Assembly (NCBI GenBank): GCA_047967505.1
Contig: CM106538.1
Origin: Dipteris shenzhenensis
Lineage: Eukaryota
Direction: 5' to 3' (one strand)
Length of the DNA stretch: 64,000 bases
Shown: positions 705-51,305 of the stretch, one piece after another
Position numbering within the stretch: position 1 is the first letter of the stretch
How the letters are laid out: every line of letters begins with the position of its first letter
Made by a program: the position numbers and the translations under genes
The notes under the pieces: model-generated
What the model was told of the DNA's origin: nothing
The model's database searches: none
Seen by the model: the letters and a program-made list of their open reading frames with translations, nothing else

Positions 705-3700
705 TCCTCCACCCGCCATCCCTCCCGCCCCCCTCCTCCACCCTCGCCCCCTCCCTCCTTCTCCCCCGCCCCACCCGTCTCCCTCTGCCAGCCCCCTCTC
801 CCTCCCCGCCAACCCCCTCTCACCTTCCCGCTCCCCTTCCTCCTCCCTGCCCTCCCTCTCTTCCCCGCCCTCCCTCTTCTCCACCCCCCTCCTCCACCCA
901 TGCCCCCTCCCTCCTCCCGTGCCCACCCTCTCCTCCGCCAGCCCCCTCTCTCTCCCTGCCAACCCCCTCTCCCTCGTCCCTCACCCTCCCGTCCCCTTCC
1001 TCCTCCCCGTCCTCCCTCTCCTCCACTCGCTAGCCCCCCCGCCCCTCTCCTCCACCCTCATTCCCTCCCTCCTCCCCCGCCCACCCTCTCCTCCTACCCG
1101 CCTTCCCTCTCTCCCTTGCCAGCCCCCTCGCCCACTCTTCCACCCGCCCCCCTCCCTCGCGTCCCGTCCCCTCCTTTCCTCTCTCCCGCCCACCCTCTCC
1201 CTTCCAACCAGCCAGCCTCCTCCCCCCCTCCCTTCATAACCCATAGCTCCCCTCCGCCTCGCCTCCCCCGTCTCCTCCTCCCCCCGCTGTTGCCTCCCTG
1301 CCTCCTCTCCTCTTCTTCCCCTCTCTCCTATCCTCTCCTATTCTTCTTCCTCCAGCGCTCGTGTTCCAGGGCGTCTTGGGCAGCAGTTTCACGGACGAAA
1401 CTTTTTCAGTGTTTGAATCGGCCTTTTCACATCGATTGGCGAATGGATCCCCACTCAGCCAATCTTCGTCCACTTCCACCGTCCACGAGAATCGTCATTT
1501 TTTTAGAAGACGAGTTGTAGCAGCTCAAGAAAGATGTGGAACTAGAGGGCTCCACATCTCTTTTCGCGCGCATCTTTGGGTCACACCCTTCCAGATCACA
1601 GACTAGAGACTAGATGTTGGCGGCGTTACCAGGAGATCTCGCCCCATACCTCAGAGATGTTCGACTTTTGGGACGTGGATTCTTCCAAGTGATTTTCGAC
1701 TCCCACGAGTCCACAGCCCTTGTTCTCAAAGCTAATCCTTTGGCTTTGGGTTCGAGGAGGAATTTTCTTTTGCCCTACACCTTGGGCTTCGATCCGATCG
1801 AGGAGGACAGTCAGGTCACATCACTGTTCATCAGATTTCCTGGTCTTTCTCAGGTCTACCATCGACTTCTTGCTACTATCAGAGCCACATTCGGAGTGTT
1901 CACTAAGATTCCCCTCGTTCCTGACATGCCTTCTTCCTCGGCAGAGCAGTCAGAGCGGACGGGGTGCCTCGAGTTAGGGTCATTGTCTCTGATCCTAATA
2001 TCTCAGATGACCACATCATGCTTCAGCGCCCAGATGGCTCTCTCTTTCGATAGAGAGTCGAGCTTGCAGGTAGACAGGACGAGTGCAGGATTTACAGGAC
2101 TCGTGGACACTTTGCTACAGATTACTCAAAGAAGAGAAAAAGATCCAAGAGGTCTTTTGGTGCGGATCCTTCACGTACTACCCCGACTGCATCTCCCTAA
2201 AGTTCTGTACCACGCACTCCAAAACCACCAGGAGCAGCAGGACACCTTGCTTCGCGCATCCCAGGACCACCAGGGGCAGCAGGGCGCTCAAAGCCCGCAG
2301 CACATCGAGTACCACGATGGAGAGCGATCAGAGCGGCTCTCTTCCCTCAGGAGGAGACCTTTGATCCGACTTAGACAGACGCCATCCAAACTCCAGAGCT
2401 AGATGTTGCTGCAGCCCAGACACTACAATTCCACATCAGGAGGGGCCTTTAGATGCATCAGTACTAGCCCCAGTCACTTTGGTTTCTGATCATGAGAGGG
2501 CTACCGATACTTCTTCCCCATAGACTGTTCTTGCCACAGTCAGGACGACTGAGGGAATGCATGCATAGATGAGAACTCCAGATTCCTCTTCAGCCCAGTC
2601 ACAGGCCTCCTCAGCCCCCAGCTCCAGTTCTGCTGATAGAGGCCTGGCAGATCCTTCTCCTCCATCTTCCACGAGTGCAGGTCTTGTTCGTACTCCTCGG
2701 CCAGATCTGCGTCTCATGAACTCTTTTTCGGCACTGGCAGACTCGGCGACTTTCATGGGTGAGGAGGAGTTTGTGCCCTCCACCTTAGGAGTCCCGGTCA
2801 TTGGGATTCCTTTTGATAGGGCTCCTTCTCAGCAGGTGTGGGGATCCTTTCACCTGTTGAGTTTTCTGCCCTCAGCAGGAGTGTTTCAGCCCAGGGGAAG
2901 CTGGTCTCCTCTACTAGGTTGGGTAAGCCTTTCCACCCAGCATCCTCCTGTCAATGAGGATAGTCAGCTAGAACATTGAAGGCCTAGGCGGAGTTTCATA
3001 CCTTCACCGTAGGCAGCTGATCCAGAATCAGCTTCATGCAGGTGTATTGGAGGTGCTATTGATATTCTTTTTAGCAAGGGACAAAGTTGGATGCCAGTGA
3101 TTGCTCTAAGTCTGGCAAACTTCTTTCAGGACATACCTTCTGGTCACCTGCTATGGGCACAAGGGGAGGTACTTGCATTCGGTCTCTCTTTCTATTCTAC
3201 CCTTGGTTGCTTCTCAGATGTAAGATTGGTATATGTCAGCAGTTAGCTGGAGACCCATCACTCTATTGAGCACTTTTTATGAGATTCTGGTGAAAGCCAT
3301 CAGTATGCGGCTACAGATTTTTCTTCCAGGTTTGATTCATGACAGGGTTTGTGCATGGCAGAAGTATTTTCAATAATATTTTCTCATTTTGGGAGGTCTC
3401 AGAATGGGCCATGCAGAGCCGGAAAGAGCTCTGGGATAGTGAGTTGGCAGATGACACGGCTGTTTTTTTGGATGCCTCCCCAAGGACACTCACTTCCTTC
3501 TGGACAGCCTTGGATTTATTTTGCATGGCTGGAAGTGCACACATTAATTGGCATAAATCTAATGGGTTTTGGATTTGCGACGATGACACCCCGGATTGAG
3601 GTAATGATATTGGTTTAACTTGGGTATAGAGGGGTGTCTCCGTCAGATATTTGGGCTGCCAGGTTGGGGTGGGCATCTCTCTATCATGGTTTGTATGCTC

Positions 3701-5625
3701 ATCATGGTTCTTCTAGCCAGATCATGGTTTGTATGCTCTTCTTGGTGCCACTCTAGGAATTGTATTACTCAGCTCAAGAGACTCGTACGAAACTTTTTAT
3801 GGAGTGGTCTAGATGGCACAGCTGATGTTATATCCAGGGTGGCTTAGGAGACCTTGACTTCCACAAGAGAAGGGGGTTTGAATATCATTGACCCGGATCT
3901 ACAGTGCAGAGCCTTACTCTGCAAGGTCGTTGTGAGAGAACTTATGCCAGGGCAAGAGCCTTGGGAGGACTTTTTTATCAGATACATACAATCTTGCATA
4001 CCCACTTCAAGAGATGATTGGATACACAATACCAGATGGGTTTGCACCACAGCCCAGCTCATATCTCCTTCTTCCCCTCTTATGGTTGCTACCCTGAAAG
4101 CATGGGCTAGCTTCAGGAGTACTCTTCGCAGAATTCCGCGTCCGCCCGTGAAGAGATTGAAAGGCAGCCTATCATGTGGAACGATAGTATTTTGGATGAG
4201 CATGGCAGACCACTTGGAGCTTCTCTTTACATGCAGTTGTTGGTGAACTGAAAAGAAAGAGTAGAGTGGACACAAACTCAGAATACTTGCATTATGGAAT
4301 GAAGCAGAGTGAGGTCCTTATGTAGGCACCTCATACATGCTCACTGACATCACTGATGACTTCAGAGCTCCACAATCATCTCCTCAATCTGCTCCTAGAT
4401 TCTCTCAATCATCCTATGTGGCTTTCCACCACCTAACTGTGCTTATGGGCACCTAACTGTGCCTCTAGCACTCACACATAGAAACCAAGGTGTGCCTGAG
4501 GCATACACCTTGAGATATCCCATCAGCAGTGGCCCAGATGGGAGAGGGGCCCTGCATCTACTGTGGGAGCATGGAAAGCCTTCAGGAGGCTTCCTGCAGA
4601 CCGACATGCCCAGGTGGTTCATAATCTCAGAGGGAATGCAGGGAGAGTTCAACAGATTGACGCAGCCTTGCCCTTGGATTGGGTGGACACAGATGACATG
4701 TCTATTACTTATTTCACCTGGATGGGGGCATTTTGTCAGTAATGCCAGGAAATTCTAGCTCAGCTGTAGGGGTTGGAGGCCCACCAGAGCTCCTCATTGG
4801 GAGAATTATCAAATTTTTGCAGACTTGCAGAAAATTTTTTGAAAGAGGCTCTGGAAATCCCACTGGAATAGAAAAATCTCTCTTCTTTTGGCTTTCTATT
4901 CATGGTGGGATAGCAGTGAACCATTGGAGATCCAGGTTTGGGGCACCCTACTTACCCTCGTTGCCTTTCTGCTTTGGAGATAGTACAGCACTACCTTTGG
5001 GTTGCAGACAGGCGATAATCATATGGAAGGGGATTGCAAGACTTTTCAGCACTTTTGTTCGCCTCCCCTTCTATATGACCTGGGAATCAGTGGCTTTGAT
5101 CACCCTTTCAGGGCCCCAGGTTTTCTTCGAGAGACATGACTCATCTTGGTCTCTACACGTCCGACGACACCTTGTGGAGTCGTGCTCTTTAGAGGATGTT
5201 CGGCCACTCTCTTCAGGGCTGCTCAATCCTCGGTTGACTCTCCATGGGAGGTCTTAGATAGCATTGTAGGATGGCAGATTTGGAGAGCGAGATGCATTGA
5301 GGCTATGGAGGGTTCTCAGGTTCACCCTTCTCAGATCTTGGCCAGTACTTGGATAGATACGGTGCACACTCTGATGGCCATATGGGCGACCATGCAGGGA
5401 TCCTCTCGAGCAGCCTCCTCTAAGAGAGTTACTTTTCTCAAGGATTGGAGAGACTCCCTCCTTGATGGGTTTGAGTTGGCATTTTCAGCCTTAGCCTTGG
5501 TTTCTTTCTACCTCATTCTTCTGAGGTGTTTTTTATTACATGCTTAGCATGTTGTATTTCCGCACAGAGCTTGCTCTAGTGAGTTTCTTTCTTTCTTAAT
5601 AGAAGTCTCTTTTTTGCAAAAAAAA
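705..5625 (+). mobile_element. L1-like LINE, family A copy 1 (degenerate, large ORF2 deletions)
   Basis: C-rich 5' UTR ~705-1350. ORF1 from ~1443 (MDPHSANL; VRLLGRGFFQVIFD, DUF4283-like; degenerate zinc knuckle near 2080-2125). APE remnant ~2960-3200, RT remnants (GFVHGRSIFNN, SELADDT), zf-RVT-like C-terminus. Ends CTTAATAGAAGTCTCT..GC-A8, the same terminus as the copies at 8983 and 29057. Confidence 0.9.
4238..4525. mobile_element. Solo LTR, 288 bp, inserted in L1 ORF2
   Basis: Ends TGTTGG...CCATCA, with an exact 5-bp TSD GCAGT (4233-4237, 4526-4530). Removing it restores SLYMQW.RWERGP as seen in copy 2. Confidence 0.9.
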
Positions 5626-7559
5626 GAATAGCAAGTCGTTAAAGGTGCTTGTCGTTTGTTAGTTAACGTTCTTCTAGGTAATTTCTTCTTACTCTAGGAG
5701 ACTCTTTATTCCAACAAAGTATTGGCATTTTGATGAGTACTAATTGTTCTGTTTCTTATCAAACTTCTATCTTTTTACTGAATGGATTTGAGGGTATGCA
5801 ACGATGATTTCTTGCGAGACTTGTCCTATTGTTTTTCACTAGGTGAGGAGATTTAGGGGGGGCACATCTGTCTTAGATGTTCTAAACTTCAAAGATTTTA
5901 TGGACAAAGATCCAAATTCTTTCGATGGATGTATTTATCCTCCAGAGGTTTATGAACTTATTGTACAACTAGTGGAGGCTATTGTAGTCTCTTGGATCTT
6001 AGCATTACTTAATCTTTTGTAGTTTTAGAAGTGGATATGTATGATAAATGACAAGCACTTGAGTATGCCGTGATGAATATCATAAAAATGTCCCACATTG
6101 ACTCAAACATGTTTGATATGTCTAAAAGTTGAGTGATACTTCAAATTTTATATGTTTTCTTGTCTTTGTACAAGTAAGAGTGTCTTTATAATCATATTAC
6201 TTCTTGGAAAGGGCTATAATACAAGATAAGTAATAAAGAAACTCCAGTGTCCTACGTTATAATTGTTATATATTTTGAAGTTCGGCTTTAGGTAAGTTAA
6301 GGATCTTTGAATGCATAATAAAATCCAAAGTGGGGAGCTTCAAAGCTCATTTTCTTTCAAGCTCTTAGGTTTTTTCTATTCTTGGAGGTCAGCTCTTATA
6401 TGTATCTGTCAAATTGCAGCAATATTTTTCCCCTGTGAGCAAGGATGTGTACGTGGATATTCATGATGTTCAAATCACCATGCAACTTAGGAGAACAAAG
6501 TTGATGCACTGAAAGCAATTTGATACTTTTTTTGCCATCTTTGGAACGCCAGAAGATTTCCATAACGGCAAGTAAAATTGAATATATGCCACAAGGATGG
6601 ACTGTACTATCTGAAGTCGAACATGCAAAGGCCAGGTTGCCAATTTCCAATATTCTAGCTTTTTTCGAAGCTTGACCATCATCCAATTAGTTTGTTGACG
6701 ACAAGTGAGCACCCCAAAGGGTAACCAAGAGACGAACAATCTGAGTGGATGGAATGATTTCCTTGGGCCACAAAAGACTATGCCAGTTTTTAGAATGCAA
6801 TGGGAGCAGCTTGGACTTTTGAAAATTTACATGAAGAAGCTGCCAAACCATAAATAGAGAGAGCTTGCATCAAAGTAGAAAGATCATTCTGCGTATTCTT
6901 CGTGGTAAAGAAAGAATCATCAGCATAGGCTTGAGCAACCATGCAGCGATTTGCATCCAATTCCAAACCATGAAGGGAGCCTGTAGCCACGAGATGATCA
7001 ATATATTGCAGAATAGGATGGGTAGCAGTGGCATACAATAAAGCACTAAGGGAACATCCTTTACGGACTGAACAACAAAGAGTCCACTCATTAGAGAGAT
7101 CTCCAGCTGTCCCTGTAAACCCAATAAATAATCTGCTGCATTTTTTTTCCAAACCCCAAAGCTCGCATTGTTTGCGAGATGAATTCCCATTGAATTGTAT
7201 CAAAGGCTTTTGCAATATCCACCTGTAAGAGCAGAACATCTTGATGTGTGTATTTGGCATATTCAATCCGAATATAAGCATTGGCAATATTATCTGTGAT
7301 ATGCCTACGCGGAACGAAGCCATATTGCGAAGGATGCAGCTCATCATGCAAATAACCTTTAATACGATCAACAACCATTTTGGCTATGATCTTGTAAATA
7401 ATTGGCATGAGCGTTATTGGTCTCCAATCAGTGAGCAAATCACATAACTGCTTTTTTGGAAGGAGCTTGACAAGTCCTTTTTTCCATGACATAGGCATTT
7501 GCTGATTTTCCCAGGCTGAATTAACCATTTGCAGCAAAGTCTGCTTGAGGATATCCCTG

Positions 7560-7862
7560 GTAGATTACCTTCTTTGGTTTTGATGGGGAGATTTCCATCG
7601 ACATCATCATAACCATCATCATCATCATCATCATCAACAGTAGGACATTAGGATGGATGGGGCTGTGGAACTGGAGGCATGAGGTCAGCAATAGAGCGCT
7701 GTCGCTCCCCCAAGGGTGCAGTCCTAGTACGTCTCCTGGTTGTAGCTCTGCGTTTGACTAGGGCCAGTGTGACCCCCGTTGGTCGGGCTCTGACCCTAAA
7801 CAAGGAGGGGATGTCCCCAAGTATGATCTGTGAGTCAACCCTCTGTTTGAGCTGTCGGGTCA
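7560..7862 (-). mobile_element. RTE-X-like 3' fragment with (TGA)n run
   Basis: TRQLKQRVDSQIILGDIPSLFRVRARPTGVTLALV aligns with 200-310. (CAT)n run at ~7602-7636. Sits where most of the host EN/linker region is deleted. Confidence 0.7.
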
Positions 7863-8982
7863 TAACCAGCAAAAAAATGTCATAACTAGCAAAATGTCCA
7901 GATTTTCCAGCATACATATGCTGATTATGCTCTTGCAAAGCCCACTATATCAGGCTGCAATTGGCGTATATACAGCCAAACCAGTTTCCATTTTCGAGCA
8001 TCTCACAAACCCTGTACATTCGAAGTGACACATTTGAGATGATCAAGCATATCTACAGATATAGGATAGGTATGTACAACAGCAAAAATGCCTTCTATGA
8101 CTTCATTTCCACCTCAGTATTCGGGCCTCGGCCCTGAGAAGAAAACTGAGCCTGAGGAGAAGACAATAATGCAGCAACTTCCTCTTCTGGAAAGAGGGTA
8201 TGATTGGCTGTCACCTCAGCCCAAGTCAAACCAATACCAGAATTCTCAGCCGGTGTTTTGCCCTGAGATGAAGCACCATTCTAAGTGCGAGAGGGCAAAG
8301 GTCTCCTAGGTGAAAAGACTTTTCTTGGGGTTTGCCAAACATCATTCAAAGTTTTTTTCCTTTGCTTGATGATGAGAGGTCGAAGGCACAGAAGGAGAAA
8401 CATCACCATTTGAAGCAACCGGTGTTTTCTCTTTGTCCTGGACAGCAAAAAACCCCTTAGTCTTCATCAAAGAGGCGACAGTAGAAGTCTTGCTCGGAGA
8501 TGGAGACAAATCAGCCTGCACTGGCATTTTTGGAGTACGTGAAGGGCATTGCGAAGCCATATGCCCAAACTTCTTGCATTCAAAGCAAGCACCTGCAAAG
8601 AGACCCATTTCAGTTTATAGAAGGCATTGCCCATGGAAACATTATTCACTGTAACCAAATAAGAGTCTAGGGTTGGATTATCTGTGTCCCACAAAATACA
8701 ATATCTGTTTGAATTGCCATTAGGCCGTGGTGGACAAACCACTTTGCCAAGAGATGCTGCAATTTTTGGCAAAAGAGAAGCCAGACATTGAGGGAAGTCC
8801 ACAACTTCCACCCAGAGAGGGCATCTGTGTCGGATCAACGCCTGATAGTCTGTGGTGGGAGACTAGGGCAACACATGAACCAGCTGCTGCCCAGAGAAAA
8901 GAGGAGAGTGCTCCAATAAAATCTGCCTGTGCTCTTCATATGCCATGATCACTTAAAAAAAAACCCTTGCTGCATAGTGAAC

Positions 8983-11900
8983 TTTTTTTTTTCCCCAAGA
9001 AAGAGACTTCTATTAAGTAAGAGAAAAAATCCGCGAGAGCAAGCTCAAAGCGGACTACATCATGAAATCAGGAGGATAAATAAAACCCCCTCAAAGTGAG
9101 GTGGAAAACAACCAAGGTTGAGGTTGAGAACCTCAACCCTGTAGGAGTCTCAGCGAAGAAAGGAGAATCCTTTCATTCCTTGAAGAAAGAAGGCCTCCTA
9201 GCTGAGGCTGCACGGGAGTCTCCTTGCATACTCGTCCATACGGCCATCAAAGTATGTACGGTGTCTGTCCAGATACTAGCCAATGTGTGCGAGGGATGAA
9301 CCTGAGTACCCTCCAAAGCGTTTGTGCATCTGGCTCTCCAGATATGCCAGGATGCTATGCTCACTGGAATCTCCCAAGAAGTATCCACAGAGGCATGTAC
9401 CGTTGTAAAAGGAAGGTGTGGTACCACATTGAACGAATAGGACTCAATCTGATGACATCGAATCAAAATGGTCCGAGAGGAGTCAAGTCTCTCATAGAAT
9501 ACGTGAGGCCCTGTAAGAGAAAGCCAAGCCATTGAGCCCGATGTCATAAAGAATGGGGAGTGGGCAAAGTGATTGAAAATCCTGGCTACCCCCATCCAAA
9601 TCGTCCTTGCCTGTTTGCAATTCCATAAGCAATGTTGAATAGTCTGCGAAGCAGAGAGGCAACAAGGGCAAGTAGGGTCGGCTCCGAACCTGGATCTCCA
9701 AAGGTTCACTGCAATCCCACCATGGATAGAGAGCCAAAAAAAGAGAGTGATCTTTCTATTCCTGTGGGATTTCGAGAGTCTCCTCCAGAAGCACCTTTGC
9801 AGATCCGCAGTGATATCAAATGTCTCCCAATGAGGAACTCTGGAAGGTCTCCAACCTCTACACTACTGAGCTGAAATCTCATGGCATTACTGATCGTGTA
9901 ACAAAAGAAGGGGATGCTCTTTTCTCGATGCCCTGTCTCAATCCACTCCCACTCTCCAGGGTTCCACTGTAAATACCTAATAGGAACTCCCCTGTAGAGC
10001 CCAAGCCTCCAAGACCCGATGGAGAGTAGCCGGGGGTTTGGGTCGAGGAACCGCTCTGAATTTGATCCTTGCACCAAAAGACCTACAACCTTGATAGGCT
10101 GAAAAGCAGACTCAAGCAAGATGTCCTCTGTGGACCTGAGCAATCTGCCACCATCCTGCACACTAAAAACTAAAGTATCCTCCTGTGCATCTCGAAAGGC
10201 CAAAACCTGAAGCGGAACACCGCCTCTCGTAAAAGTACCTGCCCAAGTGGAGCAAGTGAGTGGCATATCATCTGTGTCTACCCAATCCTCTGGAAGGGCT
10301 GCCTCAATCTGCAAGATCCTTCCTGCACTCCCTCTGCGATGTCCTGTCAACTGAGATTTGGTCTCCTCTGGAAGCATGTGGAAAGCCTTCCAAGATCCCA
10401 AAGATGATGCAGGTCCCCTCTCCCACCTGGACCATTGCATGTAGAGTGAGGCACCAAGTGGTCTGCCATGATCATCTAAAATACAGTCATTCCACATGAT
10501 CGATTGCCTATCAATCTCTTCACGAGAGGAAGGAGGAATCCTCCGAAGAGTGCTCTTGAAATTGGCCCATGCTTTCAGAATGGCAACCATGAGAGGGGAT
10601 GAAGGTGATCTGAGGTGTGCTGTGGTGAAGATCCACCTAATACTGCTCATCCAGTCTCCTCCTGAAGAAGGTGTGCACCTCTGTATGCTGCTAATAAGAA
10701 AGGCCTTCCACGGTTCCTGCCCTGGCATAAGTCCCCGCACCACCATATTGCATAGTAAAGCTTTGCACTGTAAATTTGGATCAATAATATTGAGACCCCC
10801 TTCCTATGAGGGTCTTCCAAGCCACCCTGGCTAAGGCATCTGCTGTACCATCAAGCCCACTCCAAAGAAAATTTCTGATCGGTCTCCTGAGCTGAGTGAT
10901 GCAATCCCTAGAACGGCAACAGCATGAACAAACAAACCAGGCCGTGGCCAAGAGGACCTAGTTAACCACCACAACTCTAGAGGCAAGATCCAGCTTGGTT
11001 GAGCTCCAAAAAAGGAGCTTCCTCCTGATGCTCTTTAACACGGGAGCAAACTGCTGCGTGGAAGAAATATCCAAGCCGACCTGGCAGCCCAAATACTTGA
11101 TAGGCACACCCCTCTGAGTGAATCCTATGTCAAGCCCCCAAACTGGAGTGTCCTCATCATTGATCGAAAAGCCATTGGATTTATGCCAATTTATTTGCGC
11201 CCCCGCCGCCAAGTAGAATAAATTCAATGCTGTCCTGAAAGAAGTGAGTGTCTGTGGAGTGGCATCCAAGTAAACTGCTGTGTCATCTGCCAACTCACTG
11301 TCAAGTAGCTCCTCTTCCCTTCTGATGGGAAGTCTCAGCCCAAAGATGTCAGCTTGAGATCTAACATAGATACTCATAGCTTCGGCCACGAACAAAAAAA
11401 GAAAAGGAGCAAGGGGACATCCGTGACGGACTGATCTGGAAATATGAAATCTCTCACCCCTTACCCCACCAATAAGTACCTGGCTGTGGGCTGATCTGTA
11501 CAAAGAGGAAACACCTCTGATCCAAGCATAAGTAAAGCCAAAACGTAGAAAGATGCCCTCCAAAAAGCCCCAATCTACTCTGTCATAAACTTTCTCAAAA
11601 TCCAAAAGTAGAATGCCTAGATTCTGGTCGCTCTGCATGGCCCACTCTGAAGCTTCCCAGAAAGAGAAACTGTTATAAAAGATGCTTCTGCCATGCACAA
11701 ATCTCGTCTGAGTGTCATGAATAAGATCTGGGAGAAGGGGTTGCAATCAGAGGCTGATTGCCTTGGCCAGAATCTTGTAACAAGTCCCCAGAAGTGTGAT
11801 AGGCCTCCACTGGGACACTAGATTTCCGCAACCTCCTTTCGGGATAAGGTGGATGAGACCCTTTGTAAGTGACCCAGGCATCTCGCCAGAGTCCCAAATG

Positions 11901-14900
11901 CCCTGTAGGGCTGAAGTAATGTAGTCTCCAATCATATCCCAAAATGCAATGCAAAAAGAAGGGATAAGGCCATGGGCATTTGCCCTTGTGAAGGGCTGAA
12001 AGTGCAGTCCTGAACTCTGTGTTGGTGAAAGGTGCATCAAGCAAAACATGCATATCTGGTTTCACCAACAAAGGGATGCTTTGCCAAATAACCTGTCTAG
12101 CATCCTCTCTATCCCGTGTCTCAGGATCAGTAGTAAGAAGGGCGGCATAAAAATCTGAAGCTATGCACAAGACATCATCTGGATCTATCTGTAAAACCCC
12201 ATGTGAGTCAATAAGTTGGGATACACTCTCTCTACTATGTCTAGGGCCAAGAGTAGAGCAAAAGTGTTTATTGACTCTTCCACCCATCTGAATCTAGAAG
12301 GACTCCTGTGCATGAAAGGCATACTCTGCTCTCTGATCAAGCAATATATGCTGATGAGCCCTTGCTGCAGCAAGGCGCTCCTAAATCCAAGCATCTGAAG
12401 GCCGTTTCTACTCTTCCCTCTGCAAAGCTACTCCGGTGCATGAAAGGCATACTCTGCTCTCTGATCAAGCTCTCTGATCAAGCAATATATGTTGATGAGC
12501 CCTTGCTGCAGCAAGGCGCTCCTAAATCCAAGCATCTGAAGGCCGTTTCTACTCTTCCTCTGCAAAGCTACTAACTGTTGGCGAACACCAATCTCACGTC
12601 TGAGAATATCTTGTCTCCTGGTACAAGCAATTGAGAGGTAGAAGTCGCTAATACCAGAAAGGGCAGCACCTAAATGTGATGGAAATGGCTGCCCACCCTA
12701 GACATGAGAAACCCATATTTGTAGGGCTGCCTCTGTAAGGTCCTCCTTTGTGTACAAGGCATCTTGAATCCTGATGCTGGCAGACCGGCCTCTCAAGTGA
12801 GGCTCTAAGATAGCCAGCACAACAGGAAAGTTGTCTGAAGTGGAAACCCCAACAGCAATGCATACCGATCCACCTCTGTCCAGTGCCCTCCATGTTAAAG
12901 TTACCTCCAATCACCATGTTAAAGGCCCTCCTGCATATCGATCCACCATGTTAAAGTCACCTCGAATCACCCATGAATCTGCAATGGGGGCCTAGGAGAG
13001 CAAATCCTTCGACATAATGACACGTTCCCCTCTAATGTTGGAGGCATATAGGTTAAGGAAACCAACCTTACGTCCTCTAATCAAGAGAATAATCCATTGA
13101 GCTCTAGAGGGAATAATGACTCCGTGTCCAACAACTAAGGGGAGAACCGATTGCGAAACTAAAATAGAAGTGCCACTCCTGGTGCCCAAGGCAGGCGACT
13201 AAAAAGTATGACCAGAAAGCAACTTGCTTGACTTTGGCACAATCTCTAGAATCTAGTTTGTCCTCTTGAATAAATAAGATATCAATGGAACCCCCAGTAA
13301 CACGTGGATGAAGCTAATCGCGGATCAGTTGTCTACGACGGCGATGTGGGACGCCACCTAGGCCCTGTATGTTCCAACTAATAATATTGATCGACGGGAG
13401 GATGTAGAGTGGAACACCTTAACCGACCTAGTGGCGGAAACAAAACCCTCAACGGGGGAAGACCTCCTGCTCAAAGAGCGAGGAATGGAACCGAGTGGCG
13501 GAAAATCAATAGGGGAAAGAACCCTGCCACCTGAAGAAGTAGCCTTGTCAACAGGAAACCCAATCATTGACTCACCAAAAGTAGAGGGCACAAACTTCTC
13601 CTCTGGGAAATTTGAAGTATCTGCCAGGGCTGAAAATGAGTTTCTGTGAAGCAAGCCAGACACCGGAGTGTGAAGGATCCCTTCTGATCAATAGTGTAAA
13701 CCATCCCCTTCCCCCTATCCAAGGGAGGAAGTCAGGATTGTCTGCCCAGCCGGGGAGACCTCTACTGCCTCAAGGAGTGTCTGGCACCGCTGGGTCTAGG
13801 GGAGAAGTTGCAACCGGGGAGGAGGTCGAAGCTTCAACGTTTCACACTGTGCGAGGTGAGACTGGAGGGATAGCCCGAGGTGAAGCAGAGTCCACTAGTG
13901 TACGCTCGTGAACTAAAAGAGGGATCTTCACACGAACCGGAACCCATTGGAATGCGTCGGGTGTCTTTGAGGTAGATGGTCGTGAGGCAACTGAGGTAGA
14001 AGGTGGCGGTATCAAAGGATCGCTCAGTGGAGGAGCAGTCTGGCGAGTAGGAGCTAAACCACCATGCTGAGGACGACCGCCATGTGGAAGTTGAGGAGCA
14101 GGTGTTGGACCTGTATCACCCCCTTGTCAAGGTTGAGGAGCAGGTGCTGGACTTGTACCACCACCATCCTGAGGAGGACCGCCATGCGGAGGTTGAGGAG
14201 CAGGTGCTGGATCTGTACCACCCATGTGTCGAGCTCGAGGAGCAGGTGCTGGACCTGTACCACCCCCCTGTCGAGGCCGTGGGGCGGTAGCTATTCCAGA
14301 GGGCTTCTTGGGCCTTTTCTTCTTCTTGGGGCAATCCCTGGCAAAGTGTCCAATGGTCCTGCATATCTTGCACTGGTCCTGCTTGCCTGCTTATAATCTC
14401 TCTTTCTGGCGAAAAGAGGAACCATCCGGGCAGTGGATCATAACATGGTCCATCGTGAGGTTAGGATCCTTACAGAGGACCCTAACTCTAGGTACCGCAT
14501 CAGCCTTGGTTGCCTCTGTTGCAGTCAATGGCAACCGAGGGAGGGGTGGGATCTCGGCAACTGTGCCAAAATGATCCCCAATAACAGAAAGAAGTCGATG
14601 GTAAACCTAGGGAAGCTCGGGAAATCTGATGAAGAGCGAAAAGATTTCCTTATTTGCCTCCACTGGGTCGAAACCAATATCAAAGGTGTCAAAGAAGATC
14701 TTCCTGTGTCTGAGGTGTAAAAACTCAACTTTGAGCACAGTGCTCGCAGCCTCTGGAGTGTCAAAAACCACCTGGAAAGAACCTCGTCCCAGAAGACGAA
14801 CATCTAACAATTGTGGAGTGAGGTCTGGGGGGAGAGCCGTAAGCATCCAGTCTCTGGCTTGGGATTTGGAAGGGTGAGACCCGCAGATGCGTGCTAGCAA

Positions 14901-15936
14901 CGTGGTAGAGCATTCAATCTCTACGTCCTTCTTGTGCTGCTGCAACTCGTCTTTAGCAAAAGTAATAGTTTTCGCGGCCGGTGGAGGTGGAGTAGGATTG
15001 GCTGACGGAATATCCATCGCCAATCAAGGTGAGGAGGCCAACTTTGACATTTTTGGGGCTCCTTCCGCTTCAAAAAACGCTGCGGGAGAAGGAAGAGGGG
15101 GGAGACAGGAAGAAGGAAAAAAAGGCGGGGGTAGGGAGCAGGGGGGTAGGAGGGCTGAGGCAGAAGCGGGGGGAGGGAGCAGGGTAGAGTGAGCGGGGGA
15201 GCGACGAAGGGGAAGCGGGCTGAGAGGGAAGGGGGCTCCTTCCGCTCCAAAAAACGTTGCGGGAGAAGGAAGAGGGGGGAGACAAAAAGAAAGAAAAAAA
15301 GGCGGGGATAGGGAGCGGGGTAGAACGAGGGCTGAGGTAGAAGCGGGGGGGGGGAGCAGGGTAGAGTGAGCGGGGGAGCGAGGAAGGGGAAGCGGGCTGA
15401 GAGGGGAGGGGGCAGCTCAGCGGGAGAGGGAAGGAGGAGGTAGAGGAGAGGGAAGTAGAGACGGGGGGTAGAGGCGGGGGTAGGGAGCGGGTAGAGGCGG
15501 GGCAAAGGGGTAGAGGTGGAAGAAGGGTAGGGGGAGGGAGGAGGCGAGGGGAAGGGTAGAGGTGTGGGAGAGGGGAGCGGGGGCAAGGGTAGAGGCAGGG
15601 GTGAGGGGAGCGGGGTAGAGGGAGTAGGGAAGAGGGAGCGGGGTAGAGGCGGAGCGGGCTGAGAGGGGTAGAGGAGCAGCAGGCTGAGAGGGGTAGAGGG
15701 AGCAGGGAGAGGGGGAGCAGGGCAGGGAGGAGTGGGCTGAGAGAGGAGGGGGCGGGCTGAGAGGGAGAGGAGGGGAGGGGGCAGTGGGCTGAGAGGTGAG
15801 GGGGTGGGCTGAGAGGGAGAGAAGGGGGAGGAGGGGAGAGGCTGAGGGTGGGGGAGGGGGAGCGGCTGAGGCAGAGGGAGGGACTGAAGGAGAGGGGGCA
15901 ACAAGGGAGCGGGGAGGAGCAGCCGCTCAAGAAAAT
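8983..15936 (-). mobile_element. L1-like LINE, family A copy 2, near full length (~7 kb), frameshifted
   Basis: Poly(T) 8983-8992; 14-bp TSD TAGTGAACTTTTTT at 8975-8988 and 15937-15950. ORF1 ~15017-13360 with CKICRTIGHFARDC knuckle; APE ~13350-12800; RT 12050-10950 (LLDFEKVYDRVDW, HGCPLAP, SELADDT); zf-RVT CPCC..TIQHCLWNC. Confidence 0.95.
12308..12573. repeat. ~128-bp tandem duplication inside family A ORF2
   Basis: GTGCATGAAAGGCATACTCTG...CTGCAAAGCTACT occurs twice in succession. Confidence 0.9.
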
Positions 15937-16828
15937 TAGTGAACTTTTTTGACATAGCAACCACCCAAGGTTTTAGTCAACCAGTTACCAACATTTGCAG
16001 CAGCAGGCATACGTCCTGGAGAAAAGATAATGACAGCATGCTTGGCATATTCTTTGACTGGATCAAAAATATCATCCACTTCCACCATGATGCCTGTGGT
16101 GGGAACTGGATCTTTCCAACTTTTTCTAGTATCTTCAAAACATTCGTGCATCACCTCATATACAAGCTGAGCCTCTGCAGAGGCACGATAGGGGTCATCC
16201 TGACCCATGACTTGCTTTTGCTTTTTGCTTTGGACTGATCTTTCTTTTTGAAACATCTTTTCATATGGACAGTCTGCCATTTTTCTGAATAGGAGAAGAG
16301 GTAAAGAAACTGAAATATGTATAGAGTAAGTAAAGAAGAAAGAGTCTCACACACACTACAGAAAAGTATAGGATAGGAACAGGAAGTAGAAAGAAAGAAT
16401 TACAGATATGAAAGGGAATAGAATCAAAAACAGAGAGAGAGGGTAGAAAAAACGAGCAGCCAAGGAACAGAGAAAGGAAGGGCTTCTGTACAGCCAAACC
16501 CAACTTGCAAAAGGACGTGACGGGAGACTTGAAGAAAACGCCAAGCTAGCAGAAGGGTGCAACAGGAGCATGCAGAAATCAGCGCAAAAAAGCATGACTA
16601 CCAGGACTGCTGTACGGAGGGTCGTACAGCCTGTACGGACAACTGTACGTTTTGTATGGATACAAACTGGGGACACGGACTGCAGCAGAGGTGCAACTAC
16701 CAAGAACTTCTGTACGGAGGGCCGTACAGCCTGTACGGATACCTGTACGTTCTGTACGGTTGCAGGAGCAGGGTCGCGGACTGCAACAGAGCTGGAAGGG
16801 AGGCCGAGAAAAAAAACAGGAGCCTATC

Positions 16829-16845
16829 CACACACACACACACCC

Positions 16846-16884
<39 letters not shown>

Positions 16885-16905
16885 ACCACACACTCTCACA
16901 TACAC
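16829..16905. repeat. Compound (CA)n/(TC)n microsatellite
   Basis: (CA)7, C-run, (TC)6, (AC)13, degenerate CA. Confidence 0.97.
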
Positions 16906-17460
16906 TTTTTTTTGGTAAAATCCAGTGCAGTGTATTTATATTGTCATAACTTTACAAGAGGGAAAGTCTCCAAGATGGAGAGTATTCCACAGATCAGAAG
17001 CATAAAAAGAAAAGCTCAATGCAAGATGCATGTATATCACCCTCATGGCAGGCATCATATAAAGATTGCCGCAATGAGGCTCTAAAAGATTCATATGACT
17101 TTTGAAACTGACGGCCCAAGTATGCCAGATTATGCTCTTCCCAGATTGTCCAAAGAGCCCAATATCTCACCCATGAGAAAAAGAGTGAGTATCGAGATAA
17201 AGGTGTCCTAAATCTGCCAAATAACCAAAAATGTTTCCCAAATATGTGACTCGGGAAACGGAGGCGAAGATGATCTGAAATTTTCCCCAGGAGGTTCCGA
17301 GTAGACTGGCAATGCCAAAGCAAATGAGGGACAGTCTATGAAGGAGCATGACACCGTAAGCAAGTGGGTGAAGCAATGTGACGTTTGGCAAGTGTGATTC
17401 CCACTGACAGTGTGCCGGTCATGAAAAAGTCTTTGTTTCAAAGGCATTTTACACCTCCAT
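16906..17460 (-). mobile_element. L1/Tx1-like family B copy 2, 5'-truncated (~555 bp), degenerate
   Basis: T8-GGTAAAATCC terminus identical to copy 3. WRCKMPLKQRLF and DHLRLRFPSHIFGKHFWLFG match the copy 3 C-terminus. Flanked by (AC)n on both sides. Confidence 0.9.
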
Positions 17461-17472
17461 ACACACACACAC

Positions 17473-20320
17473 TTTTTTTTTGGTAAAATCCATTGTATTT
17501 ATATGCTCATAAATTTACAATATGGGAGGTCTCCCACACACTAGCAAAGAACTCCGAAAGAGAGCCCAATAGAAGAACTCAAAAACAAGTAGAGAACACT
17601 TCAAGGCAAGTAGCATCCAAATCCCTTGCAGCAATACTGTCATGTAAAGACTGCTTAAGGGACATTCTGAAGAAAATATATGCCTGAGGAAACTGTTGAC
17701 CCATCCTAGAGTGCAGTCTCTGTGTCCAGATGGTCCATAATACCCAAAAGCGAGTCCAATGAAAGAAAAGGAGTAAAGGAGACATCTGAGATGAGCAGCA
17801 TCCAAACATCCAGAAAAGTTTCCCAAATCTGATAGAAGGGAACCGAAGCCGCAGTAAATGAGAAACCTGAGTGATCAATGTGCGAGAGTGCGGGCAAAAC
17901 CATAATAAGTGAGGAACTGTCTCGCGGGGATGAGAGCAACGGGGGCAGAAAGGAGAAGCAATGCGGCGAGCTGCCAATTTCACCCCAATGGAAAAGGCTC
18001 CCACTATACATCTCCAAAAGAAAAGCCTCTGTTTCAATGGCAATTTGGTTTTCCAGATTTTCATGAGACGGGATTGCCACCAAGATAAAGGCCTATCCAA
18101 ATTCCAAAGAGTGTTGGCATGCTTGTCAATCCATGGCTGTGGAAGAAGAAATCTGTAAACCTTCGAGGCAGTCAGATTGTGTATCGAAAGTGTATATGCA
18201 GCAGGAGGTATGGAAGTCAAATTCCAGTCCATTAATCTGTCCTGTGCAAACAGTGGAGGAACCGGAACAAATGGCTGCATCATAATTGAAAGTGTTCTCC
18301 AAATGGATCTATGATGCAGACCCAAGGAAAATGTCCTGCAAGCTTGTGGAAATGAAAGTGTATAGCCTTGTTGATCCACAACATCACCAACAAATCTTAT
18401 GCCCAATTTCATGAGATTATATGCTTTGATAGGTGCCTGTAAAGCGAGAGGCGATGCAAACACCTTGCTCCAATGGATGCTTTCCAATCGAAAGGAGTTG
18501 CCATGACGAGAGGAAGCACCTGTCCATTTTGCATATGAAAGAATTCTCTTCCAATCATGAATAAAAGCAGTAGAAACAGGGCAACCAGGAATTTTTCCCT
18601 GAAAATTAGACAAAACTGCTTCCCAGTGATCTGTAATCCAATGCCCATATGCATGGGAAGCCATGTTTCCACACATAGCTGCTAACATAATAGCCCATGG
18701 TTGGTTTTGCTGAAAAAAATCAGCAATCATAGTGCTCTTTCTTGCCAACATATGAACCTGGAGATTGAGAATATTCAGCCCCCCATGAGTCTTGGGTGAA
18801 CAAATAGACAGCATAGGTAGTAGTCTCAAAGCTTTTTTAAGAGATTTACTTTTCCAAAATATCTCCATAGCTTGGGACATATAAGAAGCCAAATGCTTGA
18901 AAGACCAAGGAAGAAGAGGCAGATAAAATTGCACATATGCCATAATGATGGACTGTACTATCCGGAGTCGAACATGTAGAGGCCAAGTGGACAAATGCCA
19001 GTATTCCAGCTTCTTATTGATCTTTTGAAGCACCCATTTGAGCTGTTGTTGCGGAGTAATATTCCAGCCAATGGGGTATCCGAGATGTCTGACAATAGTA
19101 AAGGAAGAGATAATGTGGCCTGGCCAAAACAGTGCATGCCAATCAGCTTCTTTCAAAGCTAGAAGTTTTGATTTCTGAAAATTGATATGCAGTCCAGCAG
19201 CTATACCAAAGTCATTCAGTGTATGCATCAAACAAGAAAGATCACTTTGAGAATTCCTTGGCATGAAGAATGAATCATCAGCATAGGCCTGTGCAAGAAA
19301 AGACTTTGCCCCTGGAATTTGCAAACCATGAAGCTGTCCTGTATCTGCCAGATAGTCCATATGCAAGAGTAACGGATGGGTAGCAATGGCATACAGTAAG
19401 GAGCTGAAAGGGCAACCCTGTCTCACTGAGCGAGTCATAGTCCAGGTTCTTGACAACCCACCACCAAGCAAGCACTGTGCAGTGGCATGAGAATAAAGCC
19501 AGTAAATGATGTGGACAAGTCGAGAGCCAAATCCCAATTTTTGCATAGTTTGAGAGATGAAATCCCAATGGACAGTATCAAAAGCTTTCGCAATGTCTAC
19601 TTGCAGAATGAGAACATCTTGTTTAGAATATTTAGCATACTCAATCGCAAGCAAGGCGTTGGAGATATTGTCAGTGATCTGCCTCCTGGGGACAAACCCA
19701 TACTGCCTAGGATGAAGTCCTGCTTGCAATAGGAAGCGAACCCTGAGGACAATCATTTTAGCAATGAGTTTGTAAATGACAGGCATGAGGGAAATAGGCC
19801 GCCAATCAGCCATCGTCTCACACAACCTTTTTTTGGGAATCAATTTTACAAGGCCATGTTTCCAGGATGGAGGTAGAGATTGTTCTGCCCAAGCATGATT
19901 GATCATTAGAAGGAGAGTAATCTTGAGATCACCCCAAAATGCACGGAAGAATTCAACAGTCAGTCCATCCCAACCAGGGGAGCTGCTTTTGCGTAGATGA
20001 CTCAAAGCATCTTCCAGTTCACTAAGCATAAAAGGCTGCTCCAATGTAAGGGCCTGTTCCCGAGATACTATGGGCTGAACATGCATAAGAAATTGAGACC
20101 TGGCTGCATTTACTTGCATCAAATGATCAGGTGGAGAAGAAAGGAGCTGCTGAAAGTGACTAAAACATTGCAATTCCAGGTCTGATTTGGAAGTGGTCCA
20201 GGTGCCATCAGCTTTCTTGATCCTGCAAATATCCTCCTTTCGCCTATCCGCATGGAGACTTTTAAAAAAGGCTTTGGAGGAGCAGCCCTTATCCAAAAGG
20301 GGTTTCATACGAGCTCGGAT

Positions 20321-20321
<1 letters not shown>
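17473..20321 (-). mobile_element. L1/Tx1-like family B copy 3, 5'-truncated, probably young
   Basis: T9-GGTAAAATCC terminus; (AC)6 at 17461-17472 and (CA)~20 from 20322; uninterrupted ORF. Confidence 0.95.
17579..20321 (-). CDS. 5'-truncated LINE ORF2: reverse transcriptase plus zf-RVT (~914 open codons, no endonuclease, no RNase H seen)
   Basis: SPGWDGLTVEFF, WRPISLMP, QYGFVPRR, QVDIAKAFD, VRQGCP, QAYADD, RHLGYP, CPRCSHPRETVPHLLWFC; no stop codons. Confidence 0.93.
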
Positions 20322-20369
<48 letters not shown>

Positions 20370-20378
20370 CACACTCAC
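20322..20378. repeat. (CA)n microsatellite
   Basis: About 20 perfect CA units, then degenerate CTCACA units. Confidence 0.97.
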
Positions 20379-20399
20379 CCATGGAGAGGGGCATATGGA

Positions 20400-20937
20400 C
20401 ATAATTGACATGCAGGAGGTTGAGACGGAGGAGCACTTCATCTTCAGGTGCCCTGTTTACTACGAGATTCAAGGGCGTTTCTATGGCCTCTTTAGAGATA
20501 GCTTTGGGGTTTTGTGTTGATTGCTCTCCTACCCAGACCATAGATGTTTGGCGGGAGGTAGTTAGGCATCGCGAGAGGATACTTCGATCCCGAAGATAGG
20601 AGCAGACTTCTTCCTTAGCAAATCCTCCTCAGAGCTCTATCACCGAGTTCTTGTTGCCAGGTCACATGGACACCCACGAGACGAGCGTTTACCATGATCG
20701 TGATCCATAGTCAGTGACCCGACAGCTCATACAGCGGGTTGACCACTGATGATGGTGATGATGATGAGATAGATATGTAGTCGACCACTGACATGACAAT
20801 GTTGTACATAATACTATCATTTCGTATTTTTCCATTTTGCATTGGTGTGGATGCTCGTTTAGTAGCCCCACCCTCATTGCTCGTTAGTGCTAGGTTTTTC
20901 ACCGTCTCATAGACCCATCGGTCTTATGAGGACTTTG
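20400..20937 (+). mobile_element. RTE-X-like 3' fragment
   Basis: MQEVETEEHFIFRCPVYYEIQGRFYGLF, PDHRCL, RHRERILR, VTRQLIQRVD; (GAT)n run; 3' hairpin shared with 644-674. Confidence 0.75.
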
Positions 20938-29056: not shown

Positions 29057-29790
29057 TTTTTTTTTTGCAAAAAGAGACTTCTATTAAGTATTAAAGAAAA
29101 CCGTTAGAGCAAGCTCCATACGGGATACACCATGCAATGCATGAAAAGCTCAAGAGCCAAAAAGAAAGAATTGGGGCTGATAGTGTCATCTCAATCCGGT
29201 AGAAACCTTTGAGAAAAAGAGAGAACCCCTCCAAACTTGAAGAAATACAGTCCTCCTAGAAGAGGCTGTCCGTGAAGGGCCTTGCATGCTAGCCCATATG
29301 GCTATCAAAGTGTGAACCGTGTCAGTCCAAATACACCTGTGATGGGTGTATCTGGGTGTCATCCAAGGCCTTTGTACATCTGGCTCTCCAAATGTGCCAA
29401 GAGGAAATGCTGACCAAAATTTCCCAAGAGGTGTCCACTGAAGCATGAGAAGCTCTGAAGGGAGAAAGTGGTACATCCTGAAGAGAGCATGGCTCTATCA
29501 CCTGCCGACGGACCGAGAGTGCCCAAGAAGAAGGGGATAACCAGTCGACCGAGCCCCAAGTCATGAAGAAAGGGAAGTATGAAAAATGCTGAGTATCCAA
29601 GCAACCCCTTTCCAAACAGTCCTCGCCTGCTGATTGCAGGTCGAAAAGCAATGTCGCACTGACTTCTCTGCAGAATGACAGCGAGGGCAAGTGGGATCAG
29701 CCCCAAATTGTGATCTCTAGAGGTTCACTGCAATCCCTCCATGAATAGAAAAGAGTGATCTTTCTATTTTTGAGGGACCAGAGCCTCCTC
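29057..29790 (-). mobile_element. L1 family A copy 3, 3' fragment
   Basis: T10-GCAAAAAGAGACTTCTATTAAG terminus; SVDTSWEILVSISSWHIWRARC matches copy 2. Confidence 0.9.
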
Positions 29791-29799
29791 CAGCTTTCT

Positions 29800-50100: not shown

Positions 50101-51305
50101 GACAAGCATCCGCTAGTTGACACTGATCCTTTTATTCTTCTCAGACTTCTAATTTAGAACCTCTTATCACTGTACCCTTTTTTAACCATCTGTAAGTATT
50201 CCTTTCTACCATATTGAAATCCCCTAAGGCAAAATAATTGCATTTGCACTAACAAGTGATTCCCACATTGTTTTCTGTCTGCAGCAAAGTTTAAAGCATA
50301 TATTGAGATAATTGAAAATTCTTGACCCTTGATAAGGCATTTGAGCATGAACCATCTATTATGGTCATCTTTAACCACTTGTTATACCTCTGCATTATAA
50401 TGAGATAGTATACCAATAGTAGTACCTCCCTTCCCTTCATCATGTGAAGTATACTTTAAGCCTACTCTTTAGACTAGGACCAATTGCTTTGACTCCTTAA
50501 AATGCCAGGAAGTTGGGGGAGAGAGAATTGACTCTTAGTCAGTGAGCTATCTCCCCACCTCTAACAAGATCAATCAACCTCTAGCATTCAAAGTCAAGAA
50601 AGTAACAAATTTATGTGGCATTCTTTTTTGCCCCCTTTTAGCCCTAGGGTTAGGACTATTTACCTATGGGGATGCTACTTTAGCTTGGGACTATCTTCTT
50701 TTATTGTGCACCACAGTAAAAGATTTACCTTGACCAGTGTCCTCCTTGTTTCCTAGACTAGATTTAGCCTATTCCTCTTCTGAATCTTCATCAATTATCT
50801 CCTCCCCTTCCATGGCATAATTTCTGTTAATGTCCTCTTCAACCTCCTTAAACCAACCAGCTTCAATCATGATATCATCCTCAATCTCCTACCTTTTCCC
50901 CCCTCCATCCTCAACCTCCTTCTCCCTAAGAGGTTCAAAGGAGTTTTTGGAGGTAGAGGGGATGGCACTATCTCCTTCCCTTCTTTTGAAGTAATCTTGG
51001 AGGAATTAGTTTTGTGTACTTCCTATCTAGAAGTATCATGTGTTGATGGAGCCTTAGGGACCCATTTTTCTAAAACAATAGGCTGCTTCTAAGCGGGAGC
51101 AGTAGCCTCTTTGGGCTTATTCCTCTTCAAAGCATAAAATTTGACAACATGGCTGGATAATCCACATAGGAAGCTGGAGTTGGGTAAATTCTTGTAGAGC
51201 AAAGGTTGTTCCTTGAATGTGATATGATTTCTATTCAGGATGACCAAGTTTTTAGGGAGCTCCTCAGACAAAAATATCCATCTTGATACAAATCTAAGGG
51301 TTTCC
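47110..51305 (-). mobile_element. L1-like LINE family C (ORF2 and ORF1 C-terminal part), degenerate
   Basis: GKSLGEDGLPIEFYKEFWD, IKVEFDKAYDR, QHFADDT, MGIPMG; APE motifs (ISIYALN, ARLDRFYL, SNHKPV); ORF1 GNP.ICIKMD..ELPKNL..YKNLPNS.FLCGLSSHVVK. Confidence 0.88.

Follow-up and report, generated by a model that had tools for sequence, protein, structure and literature searches.

Why should three related long interspersed nuclear elements (LINEs) lie one behind the other, in one orientation, with each of their visible boundaries in the same dinucleotide repeat? The question is raised by a stretch of 64,000 nucleotides from the fern Dipteris shenzhenensis (contig CM106538.1 of assembly GCA_047967505.1), which was analysed as a whole and is called the window below. 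A first, sequence-only reading had described three related elements of the same orientation, stacked head to tail, with five junctions that all fall in (CA)n. Direct reading of the 64 kb bears out both points: copy 3, copy 2 and copy 1 follow each other head to tail, all on the minus strand, and (CA)n of the plus strand, which is (TG)n in element sense, abuts them at three of three 5' junctions and two of two 3' junctions. The arrangement suggests a preference of this lineage for TG/CA repeats as landing sites, and successive, strand- and register-specific insertion of an L1-like lineage of the apurinic/apyrimidinic endonuclease (APE) type into (TG)n is the explanation that we hold, on a slight balance, to be the probable one.

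Layout of the stack and its microsatellite tracts

All features of the stack lie on the minus strand and are given here in element order. Tract A (20322..20378), which on the plus strand consists of (CA)20 and then CTCACA units and in element sense is (TG)n, forms the 5' flank of copy 3 (17482..20321). The latter is 5'-truncated, its frame is open through the reverse transcriptase (RT) and zf-RVT to a normal stop, and its 3' end, ...TGGATTTTACC, leads into an A9 run (17473..17481; T9 on the plus strand). A (GT)6 repeat (17461..17472; (AC)6 on the plus strand) separates copy 3 from copy 2 (16914..17460), a 3' fragment of about 550 bp that has two in-frame stops and the same terminal motif, and that ends in an A8 run (16906..16913; T8 on the plus strand). 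The interval between copy 2 and copy 1 is filled by the compound tract C (16829..16905), 77 bp long, impure and GT-rich, which reads GTGTATGTGAGAGTGTGTGG(TG)n(AG)n G6 (TG)n in element sense. Copy 1 is in two parts. Part A (15937..16828), with a presumed 5' edge, holds the N-terminus of open reading frame (ORF) 1 and, before it, a putative 5' untranslated region (UTR) in which about 100 bp are directly repeated. Part B (6411..8982) holds the rest of ORF1, an APE remnant, a deletion with filler and an RT with frame changes, and its 3' end is lost. Between them lies a nested ordinary L1 of another family (8983..15936, with an A10 run and the target-site duplication AAAAAAGTTCACTA), which interrupts copy 1 and is outside the lineage.

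A search of the window with tblastn found neither a family member nor a family 3' end upstream of tract A. Directly to the right of this tract there is, on the opposite (plus) strand, a frame of 45 residues (20379-20520) ending ...VETEEHFIFRCPVYYEIQGRF, which has the look of a Cys/His motif from the C-terminus of a retroelement ORF that breaks off at the microsatellite, and for which Pfam gave no match. Further on, a 40-bp stretch at 20715-20753 is 87.5% identical to 7823-7862, in the filler of copy 1.

Such repeats are rare in the window. Pure CA/TG runs of at least five units account for 105 of its 64,000 bases (0.16%), and four of the five runs of this kind stand at junctions of the stack, the fifth being a 10-bp run at 25394, away from them; for (CA)n runs of at least six units, the junction tracts are the only ones. 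The tracts themselves are of unequal purity, (AC)6 and (CA)20 being pure and tract C compound. An internal comparison is provided by the ordinary L1 family to which the nested element belongs. The latter has an A10 tail, an exact target-site duplication and 29% RT identity to copy 3, and neither of the two 3' ends of its family adjoins (GT)n, one running into the target-site duplication and the other into GAATAGC. The microsatellite association in the window by far exceeds chance expectation and, as against the ordinary L1 family, is peculiar to the stacked lineage. Were integration random, two landings precisely against the 5' end of a copy already in place would not be credible.

Content and decay of the three copies

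The frame of copy 3 (17579..20362) comprises 927 open codons; the first 13 read through the microsatellite (VCVC), so that the figure of about 914 codons given in the sequence-only reading agrees with the 914 that belong to the element. Two domains in it pass the curated cut-offs, RVT_1 (E 3.5e-30) and zf-RVT (E 1.9e-10), and the frame begins at the equivalent of residue 406 of the 1315 in ORF2 of an intact relative and continues in one frame to the normal stop. Since longer family copies in sequencing-run contigs pass 20308/20320 into upstream ORF2 sequence, the 5' truncation of copy 3 is confirmed. Copy 2 shares 49% amino-acid identity with copy 3 over its last 142 residues; at the DNA level, the match is limited to the last 60 nt or so (80%).

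Copy 1 is the most altered. Its ORF1 N-terminus lies at 16328-15975, is followed by the nested L1, and ORF1 resumes exactly at 8982 and extends to 8405, the pieces aligning with the ORF1 parts of P0002 and of L002 (the intact relative) at 30-52% identity. An N-terminal APE remnant at 8050-7850 is 33% identical to residues 47-113 of L002 ORF2 (E 3e-5), the equivalent of residues 114-534 is missing through a deletion with filler, and the RT (7555-6411) has undergone at least three frame changes. Against copy 3, this RT shows 55-65.5% amino-acid identity over residues 146-389, in keeping with the 60% or so estimated earlier by eye, and 37% in the degraded part (391-549). The earlier cautions about copy 1 also stand, the 5' boundary at 16828 still being a presumed one and the 3' end lost. 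The 550 bp upstream of its ORF1 hold the direct repeat of about 100 bp, and we found no homology between this putative 5' UTR and the 5' UTRs of relatives. The repeat consists of two units of about 100 bp (16597-16797, minus strand), 80% identical and with repeated CTGTACGG-like words, an arrangement reminiscent of the promoter monomers in some L1 5' UTRs.

Decay is therefore unequal: copy 3 is fully open, copy 2 carries two stops, and copy 1 has suffered frame changes, the loss of a large segment and a nested insertion. Together with the unequal purity of the tracts, this fits successive insertions, each into the tract upstream of the previous copy. That the elements were inserted independently and do not stem from a tandem duplication, as proposed before, agrees with their divergence and unequal decay, and the three copies are supported as separate, diverged insertions of one lineage.

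The same data bear on a different origin, in which the stack would be the product of one composite event or of a rearrangement: template jumps of the RT between RNAs, composite retrotransposition by read-through, or recombination between microsatellite tails. The head-to-tail order would fit such an origin, target-site duplications between the copies are not seen, and the terminal stretch of about 60 nt is common to the RNAs and could be recognised by one enzyme. However, a template jump would not leave a tract of 77 bp, and the tracts differ in purity, with (AC)6 and (CA)20 pure and tract C compound. The very unequal decay of the copies also speaks against it, although this is not decisive, because degenerate RNAs could be mobilised in trans. 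We consider a composite origin improbable.

The shared 3' end and its register

In element sense, both A-runs (A8 and A9) are followed by GTGT, so that the two intact 3' ends read TGGATTTTACC-A8/9-GTGT; the observation of A(8-9)-GTGT in the same register, made in the sequence-only reading, was correct. The 18-mer TGGATTTTACCAAAAAAA has exactly two matches in the 64 kb, one at each 3' end (0.15 expected; none of 100 shuffles reached two). Orientation is fixed as well, all three copies being collinear with the TG strand and the A-run being followed by G at both 3' ends in the window. Chance matches to a 19-mer in prokaryote genome contigs were in none of 27 cases followed by GTGT, and no LINE was found there; a search of viral contigs gave no matches. 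When folded as RNA, the 3' ends form only small hairpins, with z-scores of -0.6 to -1.7.

A constant register could also mean that the repeat belongs to the element. In this alternative, an A8-9(GT)n tail would be borne at the 3' end, through read-through or slippage of the RT, and new copies would home to resident tails or ends and not to free microsatellites. The register ACC-A8/9-GTGT is indeed constant across subfamilies that are only about 50% identical in protein, at two of the three 5' junctions of the window the repeat is no more than the tail of the copy upstream, and 3' tails of the microsatellite type have been described in other LINE clades (PMC3747384). Against it, tract A, 57 bp long, stands before copy 3 with no family 3' end preceding it, and tract C, which is long and impure and contains (AG)n and G6, looks like an old genomic microsatellite. 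Moreover, short A-runs are general in the LINEs seen here and are poor evidence of an encoded tail. The repeat is not confined to the 3' side, since at this single locus three of three 5' junctions lie in (TG)n; and because all 5' junctions are of this kind and tract A is not a family tail, a 3' tail alone is insufficient. An element-borne tail is thus, in our view, an unlikely explanation of the stack, if one to be taken seriously.

Placement of the lineage and an intact sister family

The proteins closest to the lineage in databases are three hypothetical proteins of the fern Adiantum nelumboides (50-63% identity), in addition to unnamed proteins from metagenome and run assemblies; other database proteins do not exceed about 36% identity. 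A metagenome scan yielded eight loci (L001-L008), all of them members of a sister family or more distant relatives, and none of the eight carries the GGATTTTACC end. Over a span of 5449 bp, two of these loci, L001 and L002, share 99.8% identity; outside it they differ, and they thus represent two insertions of one young, intact element. The ORF1 of this sister element (420 codons) combines a DUF4283-like part with a CCHC knuckle, and its ORF2 (1315 codons) includes Exo_endo_phos (E 1.6e-11 in L002), RVT_1 and zf-RVT. In the ORF1 of relatives, zf-CCHC scored 23.3 bits (cut-off 20.8) and DUF4283 24.8, just under its cut-off of 27.2.

In a tree of RT sequences (23 rows, quick search), copy 1, copy 3, L002 and two of the Adiantum proteins form one clade on a long stem, with a Shimodaira-Hasegawa-like approximate likelihood ratio test (SH-aLRT) value of 100. 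It stands apart from a clade of angiosperm L1 elements (98) and from one with a coral protein (99); the tree does not settle the order of the clades or the branching within the fern clade. The sister family (L001, L002 and L003) belongs to the same strongly supported clade, and its distance from copies 1 and 3 matches that between these two copies. A tree of the C-terminal region, in which nine of the 12 inner branches are weak, did not separate a grouping of the (GT)n-ended copies from L002. Judged by its sequences, the lineage is a deep L1-like clade. The label 'Tx1-like' that it had been given finds no support in a comparison that included no Tx1 reference sequence, and the ORF1 is of the plant-L1 type (DUF4283-like, CCHC).

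Evidence from outside the window

Contigs from three small sequencing runs of one organism (X1, X2 and X3; run shares 0.14, 0.11 and 0.06) were compared with the stretch at 80% likeness. No RNA run was among those listed as containing parts of the stretch. The family is abundant, with 128, 55 and 36 matching contigs in the three runs, and likeness to the stretch reaches at least 95% in 37 of the 128 contigs from X1. Two X1 contigs match the 3' end of copy 2 and continue past the T-run as ...CACACAGACACACACACACAC. As this differs from the flank in the window, they probably come from other loci that have the same kind of 3' flank in the same register. In the X1 consensus, ...CAC precedes the T-run, as it does in the window. 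For the 5' side, a contig of a second organism (X4) offers a weak case, a 76-bp fragment that adjoins CTCACACACACACACATG, that is, (CA)7. A protein of a different subfamily, P0062, which shares about 48% identity with copy 3 and has lost the stop, ends ...GITKKKCIHM; by back-translation, this end would correspond to ACC-AAAAAAAAG-TGT-..., matching ACC-A8-GTGT. An N-terminal CVCV or HTHT run was present in none of 211 other fetched proteins, which has no bearing on the matter because proteins start at ATG. Among the contigs listed, none bridges a junction, and the loose ends at 17202 (X2), 17344 (X3) and 18991 (X1) reflect internal divergence or longer copies. All in all, the support from outside the window is thin.

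These contigs also matter for two further accounts. The first is that (CA)n tracts are non-specific hot spots, fragile or open landing pads for many kinds of elements, in which three copies of an abundant family came together by chance. Plant and human elements are reported in a review to have microsatellites often at their flanks (PMC12477314), the family reaches 128, 55 and 36 contigs in three small runs, and tract A is also bordered, at 20379, by the retroelement-like frame fragment of the opposite strand. Nevertheless, a hot spot of this sort is hard to reconcile with one orientation in all three copies and one register at both 3' junctions, the other LINE families (that of the window, and L001-L003) are not at (TG)n, and the additional 3' flanks obtained from contigs are again CA-rich. 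We therefore rate this account as decidedly improbable. The second is an assembly artefact in which fragments of repeat families were misjoined through microsatellites. It could draw on the fact that the contigs come from small runs and that none of those listed spans a junction, but collapsed repeats would not differ nearly as much as these copies do (about 50-65% amino-acid identity), the flanking sequence is unique, and the exact target-site duplication of the nested L1 argues for a locally sound assembly. An artefact of this kind is very hard to credit.

How the copies may have been inserted

On the preferred reading, in which copies entered (TG)n one after another with fixed strand and register, the CA strand would be nicked so as to leave a ...CAC-3' end, and cDNA synthesis would start at the short A-run of the RNA. 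The RNA may run on beyond the A-run into GU repeats that it acquired by read-through of the source flank, and these GU repeats would pair with the CA primer; such pairing is the simplest explanation of the constant register with G first. Each insertion would leave (TG)n on both sides, and the tract upstream of a resident copy would in this way stay a target. Copy 1 would have come first, copy 2 would have entered the tract upstream of copy 1, and the young copy 3 would have settled upstream of copy 2. What the window shows directly is the anatomy of the stack, the common orientation and register and the unequal decay of the copies; the cleavage site, the pairing of RNA with target, a contribution of the endonuclease to the specificity and a preference that extends to the whole genome are conjectural.

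Several observations weigh against this reading. The full pattern is found at one locus, where the five junctions are not independent, since three tracts, and no more than three events, lie behind them. In the comparison with contigs, positions 17455-17485 were left out as repeat, and these cover the 3' junction of copy 3; most of the loose ends among those listed are due to internal divergence and are not junctions. The (TG)n-flanked copies yielded no complete endonuclease domain in the window or in the searches: the domain is seen intact in the sister element L002, and the remnant in copy 1 is all that represents it in the (TG)n-flanked lineage. Because A-runs of A8-A11 occur in every LINE family seen here, the A8/9 run alone is not proof of an encoded tail. 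Finally, the sister family ends ...GTGTTACT-A10/11 and then continues as GAAAACG or GTTTTGA, so that both of its 3' flanks are ordinary, and none of its three 5' junctions lies in (TG)n, one of them adjoining (GA)6.

At neither of the two insertions of the sister element (L001 1-71, L002 785-825) was a target-site duplication of at least 6 bp found. As a separate observation, the (GA)6 at one of its 5' flanks adjoins an element start that is itself GA-rich. The sequence-only reading had held that the preference for the repeat was kept across subfamilies. This is not established, because a sister family that is equally related has ordinary flanks at two of two 3' and three of three 5' ends. Either only some members of the clade have the (TG)n habit, or else the locus in the window is exceptional.

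Other retroelements in the window

The second, ordinary L1 family occurs at three places, 8983-15936 (minus strand), 1420-5625 (plus strand) and 29057-29793, and one of these copies, that nested in copy 1, is full-length. Its 5' region contains long G/A-rich tandem repeats (15055-15900), with a C/T-rich mirror at 720-1200, near the inverted copy. A 15-nt motif, CACCTCACTTTGAGG, which can be written as the hairpin CCTCA-CTT-TGAGG, is found at 9089-9103 (minus strand) in the window, at 5469-5483 in L001 and at 6223-6237 in L002, that is, in the 3' UTR of two LINE families with an RT identity of about 29% (0.01 chance matches expected in the window); this hairpin may be a conserved 3' recognition element. 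A LINE-like remnant with RT and endonuclease sequences at 48292-50426 (minus strand) is 23-28% identical to the LINE families already described. At 59166-60281 (plus strand) we found an exact 30-bp tandem duplication encoding ...LALYVDDM, adjoined by a frame of 250 codons that may belong to a copia-type retrotransposon.

Relation to known microsatellite-specific elements and significance

Parallels are known in animals. Mino, which we take from the sequence-only reading to be a member of the R1 clade, is an insect element, and the copies in the window differ from it in that their ORF1 is of the plant-L1 type, zf-RVT stands at the C-terminus and an A-run precedes the repeat. In the case of Mino from Anopheles gambiae (MinoAg1), the likeness is that of an APE-type LINE within AC/TG repeats (PMC3812793). 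The precedents named earlier, Kibi on (TC)n, Koshi on (TTC)n and Mino on (AC)n, are as stated in PMC3812793 and PMC4494074, and in the excerpts of these papers the microsatellite-specific APE-type LINEs, which further include Waldo, Dong on (TAA)n and crocodilian Tx1, are all from animals. One paper works with the rule that such a LINE has the same repeat at more than 20% of its flanks (PMC4494074), and Tx1 is described in the same source as an animal clade. Kibi and Koshi, which are Tx1 elements of teleosts, and crocodilian Tx1 in (TTCC)n/(TTTC)n resemble the copies in the window in belonging to the L1 group, in their APE and in inserting into microsatellites (PMC4494074, PMC3812793); they target TC-type repeats, however, whereas the window copies are in (TG)n. 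The NeSL-related Togen elements of fishes share the (TG)n target, but have a restriction-like endonuclease instead of APE and represent another group of non-long-terminal-repeat retrotransposons (PMC4640811).

Within the green lineage, the retroelements with a microsatellite bias in the excerpts of the literature searched are Penelope-like only (PMC8557442). These Chlamys elements of green algae and spike mosses have a (CA)n bias, target-site duplications that are unreadable and tandem arrangements (PMC8557442), but they are not LINEs: their endonuclease is of the GIY-YIG type, their RT is of the Penelope type, and both ORF1 and APE are lacking. Plant L1 elements of the ordinary kind, among them lineages with a 'stringent' 3' end, have in common with the window copies the ORF1/ORF2 layout, a short A tail, 5' truncation and a conserved 3' terminus (PMC3747384). 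They use A/T-rich sites and produce target-site duplications, as the nested L1 did, in contrast to the (TG)n flanks and the lack of a readable duplication in the window copies. Microsatellites have also been presented as landing pads of plant elements in general (PMC12477314). No plant LINE with microsatellite specificity was met with in the literature searched, subscription journals and Repbase reports being outside its scope.

The phenomenon itself is already known in animals, and the evidence given here comes mainly from one locus. In its widest form, the proposal would be that a deep, fern-borne branch of L1 evolved strand- and register-specific integration into (TG)n independently of the animal R1 and Tx1 elements, with pairing of a GU tail as the main source of specificity and with young members still mobile, as the first such LINE to be described in land plants. 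We regard this as a real possibility that nevertheless falls somewhat short of an even chance.

Target-specific LINEs show how retrotransposons can persist without damage to genes, and they are studied as tools for site-directed insertion. If a fern L1 lineage does insert in this way, it would be a microsatellite-specific LINE in a new host group and in a new branch of the L1 group, the third branch of APE-type LINEs in which such specificity has arisen. Its non-specific sister family (L001/L002) would then be the natural counterpart in a search for the determinant of this specificity, and insertions of this kind could help to explain the spread and the interruption of dinucleotide repeats in the very large genomes of ferns.

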